A stretch of 4,079 nt of DNA from a virus (IMGVR_UViG_2657244940_000015), one strand, 5' to 3'. Shown: positions 1 through 4,079, counted from the stretch's first letter. The notes: generated from the letters alone by a model not told the origin. Numbers and translations: made by a program.

Positions 1-2010
1 GATGGCGGTGGTCAGCAGGCGGCTGTTCTCATCGCTTCCACTGGTCAGGCGCAGACTGAAGCGCACGCCCTTCACCACCCTCGGCGTGTCCCATTTCGCC
101 AGCGCCAGATACTGGCTGTCAGCTGCGCTCACCTCCACCGTGAGGTGCTGTACTGCCGGTGGGATAACGCTGTTCAGGGTGCCTGACTGCGGCTCAAAGC
201 GGGCTCCGTTATCCACAATGGCTTCTTTTTCCGGTACGTGCTGCACCGCCGTGATGGCAAAGGTGCCGTCCGTGTTTTCCCGGATGGAGACACAGCGGAA
301 CAGGCGACGGCGCAGTGACGGCAGGGAGAGTCCCCACACCCCGTATGTCTCCACACCATCAGGCAGGGTACTGACCTGTATCCGGTCCGGCGCGGGGTGT
401 GCGGTGATGTCCACACTCACCGGCTTACCGCTGCCGTTAATCAGGTTCACCGCCGATGTACCTGTCTCCGGCAGGGTAACCTCACGGTCCAGCGTCAGGG
501 TGCGGGTGGCAGCATCAATGGACAGGATACGTCCGCCGGTCATAGTCCCGGCATAGTCGTTATCACAGATTTCAATAATGTCACCCGGTGTGTGACGCAG
601 CCCCTGTGACCCGAGCGTGAAGTCCACCGTCTGCGTTTCCAGCAGTTCGGTCTTTATCACCCACAGACCTGCACGGTGAGCCTGACCGCGGCTGGTACAG
701 CCAAACGCATCCATCTTCAGCAGATTGCGTCCGTAGCGCAGTATGGCTTCCGGGTCTTCCACCAGTTCCGTGTAGGTCTGCCAGCCGTTCTGCGGGTCGG
801 TGTAATTCACCTCCACCGCCGTGTGCCGGTCCTTCAGGGCACTGAAGCTGTAGCGGAACCCCACGCCGTTATCATCCACCACCACATCGCTGTTGGTGTA
901 CGGCCACACCACATCCGACGGGCGGTCCTGAACGAACGTCAGCGTCTGGCCGTTCCATACCGGCATACAGCGCATCGCCGAGCAGAAATCACTGAGAACG
1001 TCCCACGCCTTACGCTGTTGTGCCAGGTACGCATTAAAGGTCATCCGCGGCTCTGTGCCCCCGAAACCATCCGGGACCGTCTGGTCGCAGTACTGCCCGA
1101 TGGCATACAGCGCCCACTTGTCCACATCCGCCGCCCCCAGACGTTTTCCCATGCCGTAGCGCGGGTGAGTCAGCATGTCCCACAGACACCAGGCCGGATT
1201 GTTACTGTATGCCGGTTTCAGACTGCCGTCCCAGATACCACTGTACGTGCGTTTTTCCGGGTCATAGTTTGACGGCACCTGGATGATGCGACCGCGGATA
1301 TGGTAGTTCACCGTCATCTGCTGGCCGCCGAACTGCTCCGCATCCACCTGCAGCCCCACAATGGCCGTGTTCGGGTAGCACTGTTTCACATCGATAATTT
1401 CGGTGTATGACGACCAGAGCGTCTTATTCTGCAGCTGGTCCGTGGTGCTGTCCGCCGTCTCCCTGACCATCCGGATGTTAAAAGGACGGGGAGGCAGATT
1501 ATCCAGAATCACCGACGCCAGAAACTGCGAGGTGGTCTTGCCGTTAATGGTGACATCCTTTTCCGTCATCCATTTACCACCACGCTCAAGCTGAATCAGC
1601 AGGCGGACAGACGTCGGGTTACGGTCACCCTTTGACGTGGTCTGCACCAGTGACTGCACCCCGAAGGTCACCCGCAGGCGGTCAATGTTCGCGGACGTAA
1701 TGGTGCGCGTCACCGGTTTTGCCTTCGTCACTTCCACGCCCAGTACAGTTTCAGCTCCGGAGGACTCAAAGCCTTCCGGTGGTGTCTGCTCCTGCTCCCC
1801 GGCGCGCCAGACCGCCGTCACACCGTGTATCACGGGATTACCGTCCGTGTCCGTCAGCGGGGTTTTGTTCACCAGGATACTCTGCAGTCCCTTCACCGGG
1901 CCTTCTATCGGTCCCTCACCAACCGCATCAATCACGCTCATCATCTGCGTGGATTTGAGATTATCCTTCGCCTCACGAGGCGTGTGTGCCTTACCGCCAC
2001 CTTTTCCCAT
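1..2010 (-). CDS. J: Tail tip host-specificity protein J (lambda gpJ homolog), N-terminal 670 codons; 3' end lies beyond the left edge of the window
   Basis: Minus-strand ATG at 2010-2008 preceded by a purine-rich SD (GGGGAAGG). Translation begins MGKGGGKAHTPREAKDNLKSTQ..., closely matching the lambda gpJ N-terminus as I recall it. I scanned every codon in this frame from 2010 to 1 and found no stop (670 sense codons). It is absent from the supplied ORF track only because it has no in-window stop. Confidence 0.9.
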   Translation of the reverse strand, partial: MGKGGGKAHTPREAKDNLKSTQMMSVIDAVGEGPIEGPVKGLQSILVNKTPLTDTDGNPVIHGVTAVWRAGEQEQTPPEGFESSGAETVLGVEVTKAKPVTRTITSANIDRLRVTFGVQSLVQTTSKGDRNPTSVRLLIQLERGGKWMTEKDVTINGKTTSQFLASVILDNLPPRPFNIRMVRETADSTTDQLQNKTLWSSYTEIIDVKQCYPNTAIVGLQVDAEQFGGQQMTVNYHIRGRIIQVPSNYDPEKRTYSGIWDGSLKPAYSNNPAWCLWDMLTHPRYGMGKRLGAADVDKWALYAIGQYCDQTVPDGFGGTEPRMTFNAYLAQQRKAWDVLSDFCSAMRCMPVWNGQTLTFVQDRPSDVVWPYTNSDVVVDDNGVGFRYSFSALKDRHTAVEVNYTDPQNGWQTYTELVEDPEAILRYGRNLLKMDAFGCTSRGQAHRAGLWVIKTELLETQTVDFTLGSQGLRHTPGDIIEICDNDYAGTMTGGRILSIDAATRTLTLDREVTLPETGTSAVNLINGSGKPVSVDITAHPAPDRIQVSTLPDGVETYGVWGLSLPSLRRRLFRCVSIRENTDGTFAITAVQHVPEKEAIVDNGARFEPQSGTLNSVIPPAVQHLTVEVSAADSQYLALAKWDTPRVVKGVRFSLRLTSGSDENSRLLTTAI

Positions 2011-2113
2011 ACAGCCTTCCCCTGAATAAATTAACCGCCACTTGCCATTCCGTACAGAAGTCGGATATCCTTCGCCCGAAAAGCATGAAACACATTTCTG
2101 CCATGCTAAAGAG

Positions 2114-2148
2114 AAACCCCGGTATCAGCAGATACCGGGGTTTTCTTT
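2114..2148. terminator. Strong hairpin with U-rich tails on both strands (bidirectional intrinsic-terminator-like) in the I-J spacer
   Basis: Perfect 13-bp stem AAACCCCGGTATC (2114-2126) / GATACCGGGGTTT (2131-2143) with loop AGCA. Followed on plus by TCTTT and on minus by CTCTTT. Confidence 0.5.
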
Positions 2149-2213
2149 CATGTCCACCGATAATCCTGTTGGTAAAAACCGGTAATGGCATAAAAATTCT
2201 GAATATCTTCACA

Positions 2214-2243
2214 TTTTCACAAACTGACTGTGGCGCGTATAAT
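2214..2243 (+). promoter_or_regulatory. Sigma70-like promoter candidate (TTTTCA -N18- TATAAT), oriented antisense to the tail genes
   Basis: Perfect -10 hexamer TATAAT at 2238-2243 and a -35-like TTTTCA at 2214-2219 with 18-bp spacing, in an AT-rich stretch (about 2160-2300). Predicted TSS near 2250. Confidence 0.3.
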
Positions 2244-2310
2244 TTCGCTGCGTTAGTGTTTTTTTGCCCGAGTAACAAAAACAACTCCTTAACTCTAATC
2301 TTTGTCTGTC

Positions 2311-2345
2311 CCCGCAGCTCCGCGATCACTGCGGGATTTTTTTAT
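2311..2345 (+). terminator. Plus-strand rho-independent terminator candidate ending 6 bp from the I stop codon
   Basis: Stem CCCGCAG (2311-2317) / CTGCGGG (2329-2335) with an 11-nt loop, followed by A + TTTTTTT + ATT (2336-2346). On the minus strand the hairpin is followed by GACAGACAAAG, so it is plus-strand specific. Confidence 0.4.
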
Positions 2346-2350
2346 TCTTT

Positions 2351-3031
2351 TTACCCCTGCCGCCCGATAACCACGACCTTTCCGCACCCGCCTTCATCAC
2401 GGGTACTGATGTCCTGGGATATACGGCGGGAGCCAACCAGCATTTCCCCGTAAGGCACCGGCATCGGGTTACCCTGGGCAATCATGTTGTCCAGTGACGA
2501 AAAATACGTGTTCTGTCTGCCGTTATCCGTTGCGCGGTAATCCGGTGTTTTTGCCTTCGGGGCCAGCATCTGGGCCACACCACCCAGAATCATGCTGGCC
2601 CCCAGTGAAAACAGCATCGTGGTGGCAGAAAAACCGCCGGCACTCAGGGCTGTACCCCATAACGCCATCGAGGCACCGGCAGTGAGGAAAGAGCCCACGA
2701 TGGCTGCCGCCCCCAGCACAATCTGCAGTCCACCCTTTCCGGCCCCGGCCAGTCGCGGCACAATATGGATAACCGTTCCCTCACTCAGTGGTTCGTGAAG
2801 GCGGGCATACACCGCCTCCGGTGCCGTATCCTCACCGGCAATGCGTATCTGGTACCAGCCTTCGTTCATCTGACGGCGAAAGCCCGGCACCTGCATCGAC
2901 AGTGCGCGGATGGCTTCCGCTGCCGTGTTCACATACAGGCTGAGGCGGCGGCCAAATCGTTGTAAATCCCCGTGAAGGCAGATGCGTGCCAGTGGCGGTG
3001 ACGCCAGACAGAATGCGTTCGTCGTTGCCAT
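2351..3031 (-). CDS. I: Tail tip assembly protein I (lambda gpI homolog), 226 aa
   Basis: ORF from the track (MATTNAFCLASPPLARICLHGDLQRFGRRL...QGNPMPVPYGEMLVGSRRISQ...) resembles lambda gpI in length (223 aa in lambda) and sequence, including the hydrophobic Gly/Ala-rich central segment. SD-like GGGAGAGG lies about 11 nt upstream of the ATG. The start sits 103 bp inside the K reading frame, as in lambda. Confidence 0.88.
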   Translation of the reverse strand: MATTNAFCLASPPLARICLHGDLQRFGRRLSLYVNTAAEAIRALSMQVPGFRRQMNEGWYQIRIAGEDTAPEAVYARLHEPLSEGTVIHIVPRLAGAGKGGLQIVLGAAAIVGSFLTAGASMALWGTALSAGGFSATTMLFSLGASMILGGVAQMLAPKAKTPDYRATDNGRQNTYFSSLDNMIAQGNPMPVPYGEMLVGSRRISQDISTRDEGGCGKVVVIGRQG

Positions 3032-3918
3032 TTTTCGGAATACCTCTCCCGTTTACTCAGTTGTTCAGGCAGATGGTGAAGCAGTTCACCGTTGCCGCAG
3101 TAAATGGCGGCATGATTAGCCACCGATGCGCCGAAGCAGCACAGCAGGATATCGCCCGGCAGTGCAGAGGACAGGGGCACCCGGTAAAAGCCCGTTTCCT
3201 CCATATTGTCCAGGTAAAGGTTCTGACCGTTGCACCACCAGTCATCCTCACGGTGAAAATCCGGCATATCAATGCCTGCCAGATGGTATGCATCCCGGAA
3301 CAGCGTGTAACAGTCCGTCACCCCGTGCGCAAAGCGCCGTCCTGTCAGATGTGGCACACAGCGGAATTTGTGAATGTCACCCCGGCTGACCAGCCACCAG
3401 GGCAGTGCGCTTTTTATCTGCAGCCGCCGGTCAGCCTCGCTCAGCCAGGGCAGACCACCGGGATGACTGTGGACCAGTGCCACAATCTCCCCCTGCATCT
3501 CTGCCCGCAGCCAGTCTTCCGGTGCGATACGAAAATACGCCTCAGGCTCTGCAGAGATATTCACGCACGGCTGGTACTGGTTGCCCTCCGGCGTGCTTAT
3601 CACGAAGCCGCACGACTCCGCAGGCGCACACCGCCGGGCATGCGCCAGAATCGCTGATTCAGTCTGTGTCATGGGATTTACTGCGAAAGACTGCACGGCC
3701 CCATCAACGCGGGTGATGGCGTTAACCGGGCAGACCGTTGCGCAGGGTGCATCTTCACAGTGGTGACAGAGCTGCGGCGCAGATTCTTTTTCATTGAGCA
3801 TCACTCTCAGGCGCGGCATTGATTGCAGGCCGTGCTGGCGATGCGTCTCTGAACAGGCAGCCTCACAAGTGTGGCAGCCGATACAGAGCGTGGAGTCAGC
3901 AATTACAAAACGATTCAC
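2929..3918 (-). CDS. K: Chimeric ORF: N-terminal 82 aa HycB/HyfA-type 4Fe-4S ferredoxin fragment fused in frame to a full-length tail tip assembly protein K homolog (JAB/MPN + NlpC/P60). A K-only product could start at the internal ATG at 3672 (247 aa)
   Basis: 329-aa ORF with GTG start at 3918 and SD GAGGA 7 nt upstream. Residues 1-76 carry CIGCHTCEAAC (CxxCxxCxxxC) and CHHCEDAPCATVCP (CxxCxxxxCxxxCP). From residue 83 (MTQTESAILAHARRCAPAESCGF...) the protein matches lambda gpK, including the JAMM motif HSHPGGLPWLSEAD (HxHx7SxxD) and the NlpC/P60-type Cys in GVTDCYTLF. The internal ATG at 3672 has no obvious SD. Confidence 0.8.
   Translation of the reverse strand: MNRFVIADSTLCIGCHTCEAACSETHRQHGLQSMPRLRVMLNEKESAPQLCHHCEDAPCATVCPVNAITRVDGAVQSFAVNPMTQTESAILAHARRCAPAESCGFVISTPEGNQYQPCVNISAEPEAYFRIAPEDWLRAEMQGEIVALVHSHPGGLPWLSEADRRLQIKSALPWWLVSRGDIHKFRCVPHLTGRRFAHGVTDCYTLFRDAYHLAGIDMPDFHREDDWWCNGQNLYLDNMEETGFYRVPLSSALPGDILLCCFGASVANHAAIYCGNGELLHHLPEQLSKRERYSEKWQRRTHSVWRHRHWHASAFTGIYNDLAAASACM
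3673..3918 (-). pseudogene. hycB: 5' fragment (about 77-82 codons) of a formate-hydrogenlyase-type Fe-S subunit gene (HycB-like), truncated after the second Cys motif and fused to phage K
   Basis: MNRFVIADSTLCIGCHTCEAACSETHRQHGLQSMPRLRVMLNEKESAPQLCHHCEDAPCATVCPVNAITRVDGAVQ matches my recollection of the E. coli HycB N-terminus nearly residue for residue. Similarity ends at ...GAVQ, where an intact HycB would continue with further Cys motifs. The gene symbol is from memory and was not verified by search. Confidence 0.5.
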
Positions 3919-3990
3919 CAGGCATTCCTCAGGTGATTGTCATTTTTGACGAAAACATGCCGATGAAATGTCATTTTCGACACTCATCGA
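3919..3990 (-). promoter_or_regulatory. 5' leader of the chimeric ORF: SD plus two tandem palindromic operator-like sites (TGTCATTTTYGAC x2, 31 bp apart)
   Basis: SD GAGGA is the reverse complement of plus 3926-3930. Direct repeat of 13-mers at 3938-3950 (TGTCATTTTTGAC) and 3969-3981 (TGTCATTTTCGAC), each an inverted repeat GTC-N6-GAC (second copy TGTC-N6-GACA), spaced about three helical turns apart. Confidence 0.35.
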
Positions 3991-4079
3991 CACGCCCATC
4001 CCCAAACAGGCGTAACGCCTGCAAAACGGGCAAAGCCTCAGCTCATGCTGCCGGGCTTTGTCCCTTTACCAGTTGGCTT

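Follow-up and report, generated by a model that had tools for sequence, protein, structure and literature searches.

In native lambdoid phages and prophages, among them the prophages integrated at prfC in UPEC-245U and at btsS/yehV in EC2 and the phage vB_EcoS-783R2, the tail genes L, K, I and J follow one another in this order. Host genes are also known to be joined to the interior of a prophage. In cryptic prophage remnants and in lambda-dgal/bio joints, a host gene is fused non-homologously to the prophage interior, and the prophage retains its attR-side tail genes but loses the upstream ones. Here we analyze a stretch of DNA of 4,079 bp (the window), which is the entire contig CDRA01001286.1 of GCA_000947375.1, a highly fragmented draft assembly of more than 1,300 contigs. 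In the window, K, I, the I-J spacer and a truncated J gene (J') are collinear with the native L-K-I-J modules at 95-97% identity, K and I overlap in the same way, and the stop codon of L with the 5-nt spacer that follows it corresponds to the native short-spacer allele. Unlike the native modules, the window carries hyc DNA in place of everything upstream of the last 9 coding nucleotides of L (L, M, H and the others). The locus also departs from the cryptic remnants, which are inherited and recurrent: its joint is a singleton, no prophage lies beside hyc in Escherichia coli A42, and a sister contig with identical K-I has a different partner. The window is more like the chimeric contig ends that form at repeat boundaries, with which it shares a short tail (390 nt) and a blunt joint that no other record supports, placed 17 nt from a distinguishing site. 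We conclude that the hycB'::'L-K joint is probably such a chimeric contig end, produced during assembly or library preparation, and not a structure of the chromosome.

Results

The window carries a truncated hycB gene followed by a lambdoid tail-tip module

All genes of the window are on the minus strand and, read from position 4079 downwards, they are ordered as the end of hycA, a truncated hycB gene (hycB'), a remnant of L, K, I and J'. Positions in the A42 hyc region (L002) convert to positions in the window by an offset (window = L002 + 2189). The features are as follows.

4043..4079, minus strand: 3' end of hycA (last ~12 codons and stop), collinear through the final base of the window with hycA as annotated in E. 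coli A42
3919..4042, minus strand: native hycA-hycB intergenic region with the ribosome-binding site of hycB, 99.7% identity to A42
3690..3918, minus strand: hycB', GTG start at 3918, codons 1-76 and base 1 of codon 77
3673..3689, minus strand: L-K junction remnant, CTT TCG CAG (LSQ), TAA at 3680..3678 and the 5-nt spacer ATCCC, an exact match to native short-spacer L-K junctions
2929..3672, minus strand: K, complete, 247 aa, tail-tip assembly, Pfam Prok-JAB (JAB/MPN) and NLPC_P60
2351..3031, minus strand: I, tail assembly, 226 aa from the ATG at 3031, Pfam Lambda_tail_I
2350-2011: I-J spacer, 340 nt
2265..2343, plus strand: PasB homologue in the I-J spacer, antisense to the tail genes
1..2010, minus strand: J', N-terminal 670 codons of the tail-tip/host-specificity protein, Pfam FNIII-A_GpJ, Phage-tail_3 and Ig_J; the gene is cut off by the contig end

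The HycB part is identical to WP_001079173.1 through Q76. It keeps 2 of the 4 Cys motifs of this ferredoxin-like FHL subunit, and the Pfam domains Fer4_9 and Fer4_6 match residues 12-68 of HycB'. A protein homology search returned K homologues of 247 aa with up to 95% identity, and the exact K protein is encoded on 15 other contigs. I overlaps K by about 100 nt. Gene callers start I at the GTG at 2932, which gives a protein of 193 aa; because the Lambda_tail_I match begins at residue 15 of the 226-aa form, the longer version is favoured. J' is collinear with J of phages and prophages, and the domains of K, I and J occur on one strand in the order of a lambdoid tail tip, which identifies the segment as a tail-tip module. 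A complete L gene, which encodes 232 aa in native contexts (L020, L023-L025), is absent before K, and only 9 coding nucleotides and the stop codon are left. The first-pass annotation of this DNA had started K at the ATG at 3672 and had found L, M and H missing; the K start codon indeed occupies 3672..3670, and the absence of the three genes from the contig is borne out.

Phage and host sequences meet at a blunt joint

Lambdoid tail homology covers positions 1-3689 of the window, with 93-97% identity in phages and prophages, and reaches 3689 in all matches. Homology to hyc covers 3690/3691-4079, with 99.2-99.7% identity in all 5,426 of the 5,426 complete E. coli genomes searched by megablast. 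Base-level alignment to the intact hycB of A42 and to native L-K junctions, an analysis that the first-pass annotation had proposed, fixes the crossover exactly between 3689 and 3690, within the interval 3660-3700 in which the breakpoint had been expected. The hycB sequence ends at 3690, which is base 1 of codon 77, and the L-derived sequence starts at 3689. With the crossover marked by a slash, the coding strand reads ...GCC GTG CAG T/TG AAT in hycB, ...AAT AAA /CTT TCG CAG TAA ATCCC ATG in native L, and ...GCC GTG CAG T/CTT TCG CAG TAA ATCCC ATG in the window. The joint is blunt, with 0 nt of microhomology and with parental sequences that diverge on both sides, and we found no k-mer of 12 nt or longer shared between the phage and the hyc parts. 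This confirmed that the switch from hycB to a prophage tail gene is truly present in the sequence, where it can be placed to one phosphodiester bond.

Around the joint, HycB is native through Q76, so that the ferredoxin-like similarity ends at ...RVDGAVQ, as had been noted; native HycB continues with LNESLC after this residue, and the window departs there. The last L codons and stop were also correctly recognized just before K in the earlier reading, which counted 18 nt between HycB and K. Seventeen of these are of phage origin and one, position 3690, comes from hycB. The 17 phage nucleotides (3689..3673 on the minus strand, CTTTCGCAG-TAA-ATCCC) match the L-K junctions of L016, L017, L023 and L024 exactly. 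The joint is in frame and creates a 329-aa ORF (3918..2929) with the structure HycB(1-76)-SFAVNP-K. Because about one third of random joints would be in frame by chance, the frame of HycB'-K carries no weight.

The joint is found on a single contig

The joint occurs in 0 of the 5,426 complete E. coli genomes, in which no place covers 80% or more of 3400-4079. Searches of the GTDB species representatives (with two exact patterns), the JGI metagenome contigs and IMG/VR returned no match, and the exact 329-aa fusion protein is found only on contig CDRA01001286.1. This exact-protein search is what covers the E. coli drafts, which number in the hundreds of thousands, and a near-identical joint among them could be missed. 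Homology searches with the whole fusion or with the junction peptide detected no other HycB-K fusion among cluster representatives, to which these low-power searches were confined, and no match to the 103-aa junction-spanning peptide covers more than 62% of it. The HycB'-K fusion is itself filed within a K cluster, which weakens the negative result of both protein searches. As a control we used another unusual joint, lysozyme::L, which is present in at least 4 drafts and yet occurs in 0 complete genomes at 80% coverage or more. Because this recurrent joint is also missing from the complete genomes at that threshold, the recurrence test is not cleanly calibrated. Nothing relevant that connects hyc with prophages and anaerogenic strains was retrieved from the literature, and the assembly and WGS accessions returned no publication.

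Several matches of the protein searches were set aside. The top matches of the whole fusion (P0001-P0006), the scores of which are inflated, are not HycB fusions. They are K proteins, 277-347 aa long, in which segments of K are duplicated in tandem; each is found on a single contig, and they look like mis-assemblies of the multi-copy K gene. P0195, P0145 and P0189, examined as possible relatives of the fusion, are unrelated aberrant forms of HycB; in P0195, the HycB N-terminus runs into its own reverse complement, a chimera of the hairpin type.

The joint lies at a repeat boundary where contigs habitually break

An exact look-up of the K protein showed that the same assembly, GCA_000947375.1, has a second contig (CDRA01001308.1) with native L-K-I-J. 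Between the start of the 17-nt remnant and nucleotide ~490 of K, the sole difference between this contig and the window is a 5-nt GGTTT indel. Because the two contigs are nearly identical here, the strain must have at least 2 lambdoid prophages that form near-perfect repeats, and because the GGTTT indel is the sole distinguishing site, the joint lies only 17 nt from where the copies can be told apart. In its native form, the short-spacer allele has the order M-L-K-I-J (L020, L023-L025), and K, I and J' are intact in the window. In unrelated drafts, contigs begin 0-77 nt upstream of the K ATG (L014, L015, L026 and L027). The L/K boundary is a habitual contig-break zone.

The GGTTT motif is present or absent at 3672/3673, between the L stop codon and the K ATG, and this defines two alleles of the L-3'/K-5' region that are otherwise identical. 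Both spacer alleles occur within single genomes.

A sister contig carries a different foreign tail on the same prophage sequence

Contig CCCK01002666.1 (L016) of assembly GCA_000944435.1 has K-I without any difference from the window across 3689-2344. The accession series and the fragmentation of GCA_000944435.1 (contig numbers above 2,600) suggest that it belongs to the same batch. At positions 1-600 of L016, the last 105 nt of L, which are identical to the 3' end of L in CDRA01001308.1, are joined to 489 nt of F-plasmid traA-traL sequence that reaches the contig end. At most 1 nt is shared at this traL::L' joint, which is placed 96 nt further into L than the joint in the window and does not occur in any of the complete E. 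coli genomes. Two different foreign tails attached to the same prophage cannot both be inherited, and the sister retains the longer L; if both joints were real, two independent illegitimate recombination events would be needed. The window and L016 have in common unique tails of a few hundred bases that run to contig ends, attached about 100 nt apart, a pattern that looks like that of contig-end chimeras.

In strain A42, the chromosomal surroundings of hyc leave little room for a deletion

The genes downstream of hycB in this strain are hycC-I, hydN, hypF, norVW, srl, mltB, recA, recX and then alaS, at a distance of 25.7 kb; the interval contains no prophage. The closest relatives of the tail module are integrated at prfC (UPEC-245U) and at btsS/yehV (EC2). 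With the essential alaS gene 25.7 kb off and no intervening prophage in A42, a simple deletion is hard to accommodate, and a real event would more probably be an inversion or a translocation.

The I-J spacer contains a homologue of the PasB sRNA gene

PasB is an 83-nt Hfq-dependent sRNA that has been validated by Northern blot in EPEC E2348/69 (PMC8550237). The Northern probe used for this sRNA (PMC8550237, Table S6) matches positions 2316-2338 of the window exactly, and PasB of E2348/69 lies in the same I-J spacer and in the same orientation, with 93% identity that includes promoter and terminator. In the window, a scan of the plus strand located a strong promoter (TTCACA-16-TATAAT, 2216-2243) with 11 of 12 consensus matches and an intrinsic terminator at 2319-2345. 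The unit in the I-J spacer is a complete sRNA gene homologous to PasB. A search of the I-J spacer RNA against Rfam 15 gave no match, and AgvB, considered as another candidate, was discarded given that it sits downstream of PR'. The PasB module (~2187-2350) is present at 71-97% identity in many Stx-converting phages.

In the less conserved, J-proximal half of the spacer, positions 2113-2144 form a strong GC-rich hairpin of 14 bp (GAAACCCCGGTATC-AGCA-GATACCGGGGTTTT) followed by a T-rich stretch. Judged by its sequence, this hairpin could be a terminator, possibly bidirectional, between PasB or I and J.

Related prophages contain other unusual gene arrangements

The lysozyme::L joint produces an ORF of 345 aa in which lysozyme (PF00959) is fused to the C-terminal part of L (PF05100). 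The ORF has the same length in at least 4 drafts of the same batch, where its positions are as follows.

L010, 1387-2424: lysozyme::L ORF
L017, 380-1417: lysozyme::L ORF
L021, 715-1752: lysozyme::L ORF
L022, 1796-2833: lysozyme::L ORF

Its gene context is holin-DUF1327-lysozyme::L-K-I-J. Among the complete genomes, lysozyme is found beside L only in strain SRCC 1675, at 70% coverage. Lysozyme::L is probably a real internal prophage deletion that circulates in that strain collection. In the EC2 prophage at btsS (L006, 16580-17743), a close relative of the prophage in the window, an ompC-like porin gene lies between M and L, apparently as a moron within the tail operon.

Discussion

Two ways in which host and phage DNA could have come together fit the window poorly. 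If the joint were the attL or attR of a prophage integrated in hycB, host DNA would adjoin phage DNA, and this adjacency is all that the window offers for it. The joint falls within the late operon, where 9 nt of L are left before its stop codon, and not beside int; related prophages end past J, lom and the tail-fibre genes, beside prfC or btsS; no core sequence is common to phage and host; and the junction occurs in no other lysogen, neither among the 5,426 complete genomes nor in the other collections. An attachment site is thus extremely improbable, and the first-pass annotation was right to reject site-specific integration, considering the position within the late tail operon, the missing core and the lack of recurrence. 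It is also very unlikely that a piece of hyc of ~390 bp was captured in a prophage or transducing genome, where it would have replaced the upstream tail genes, with the native hyc operon located elsewhere. The visible hyc segment is short and the contig ends right after it, and lambdoid phages are mosaic, as illustrated by the ompC-like porin gene that the EC2 prophage carries between M and L. However, the joint is in no phage, prophage or metagenome record, a phage would not be viable if it lacked L and its upstream genes, and the segment follows hycA without interruption as far as the contig extends, so that it has no second joint. The sister contig with another foreign tail disfavours such a capture as well.

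An illegitimate recombination event private to this strain, either an inversion, a translocation or a deletion from a prophage between hycC and recX, is in our view unlikely. In its favour, the sequence on either side of the clean joint is undamaged, the joint is not an attachment site, and the contig crosses it without a break. Internal prophage deletions do circulate in these strains, as indicated by the lysozyme::L joint in at least 4 assemblies of the same batch, and homology-independent joints are known from aberrant lambda excision. Against this, the joint is on one contig only and falls at a repeat boundary, it has no microhomology, and the hyc DNA amounts to just 390 nt, after which the contig ends in unique sequence. 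In the sister assembly, the same K-I sequence is attached to another foreign tail, equally unique, and more of L is retained. A simple deletion could not extend as far as alaS, 25.7 kb away; in A42 this interval is free of prophages, and the related prophages are at prfC and btsS. A joint made in vivo is expected to be a non-homologous fusion of host and phage DNA, which was found, and to have independent support from relatives or from multiple reads; in relatives it was not found. Aberrant excision of the lambda-dgal type was rejected: the polarity of its chromosomal product fits, but a prophage beside hyc would be needed. If the joint were real, the cut at codon 76 of hycB would destroy formate hydrogenlyase, and K-I-J would come under the control of the FhlA/sigma-54 hyc promoter, beginning with an in-frame fusion of K to HycB' and its two Cys motifs; this outcome seems to us quite improbable. 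The sigma-54 promoter is inducible by formate/FhlA and lies upstream of hycA, outside the window.

A chimeric contig end remains our preferred explanation, and it is likely the correct one. The joint is near a contig end, it carries a foreign tail of 390 nt, it is at a repeat boundary, and a comparable chimera is found in the batch. Our data show a joint that is placed to the base and unique, a repeat boundary in a zone where contigs tend to break, and a similar chimera in the sister assembly, and a sequence of steps that could lead to them may be proposed. Two prophage copies that are alike except for the 5-nt spacer indel may have prevented the assembler from extending the sequence unambiguously, and the contig of the short-spacer copy would as a rule have ended no more than about 100 nt from the K start. 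A rare chimeric molecule or read, in which the allele-specific spacer was combined with unrelated hyc DNA, would then have been the only unambiguous extension and could have been incorporated, adding a tail of roughly the length of a read or insert (390 nt). The chimera itself would have been formed by ligation of fragments during library preparation or by a mis-join of the assembler, and the HycB(1-76)-SFAVNP-K ORF would be an accident without biology. A mis-join driven by repeats in the assembly graph was discarded, as there are no terminal overlaps and no common k-mer of 12 nt or longer; the absence of such a k-mer means that the joint must have been in at least one sequenced molecule. Blunt joints are typical of library ligation chimeras, and spontaneous deletions in E. 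coli mostly use short homologies.

Some considerations count against a chimera. Strict de Bruijn assembly with a coverage cutoff drops a single chimeric read, so that the unbranched path would suggest that the native continuation of hycB is missing. In addition, fusions between host genes and truncated prophages do occur in E. coli, and the chimera in the sister assembly bears on the window only indirectly. The first-pass annotation had attributed the joint to illegitimate recombination or deletion in the cell. This attribution is not supported by the singleton joint, the repeat boundary, the contig end, the sister contig with a different tail and the awkward geometry, all of which a chimeric contig would account for; the observation was correct and its interpretation as recombination in the cell probably wrong.

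Should the joint be true, it would represent a private loss of formate hydrogenlyase in one isolate and one more truncated prophage, and would be of local interest only. If it is an artefact, breakpoints and fusion ORFs at the ends of short draft contigs need read support before they are used for claims about recombination or protein architecture. The protein collection already lists HycB'-K as a 329-aa 'Fer4 + JAB + NlpC/P60' protein, and the caution applies most strongly beside the multi-copy tail genes of lambdoid prophages.
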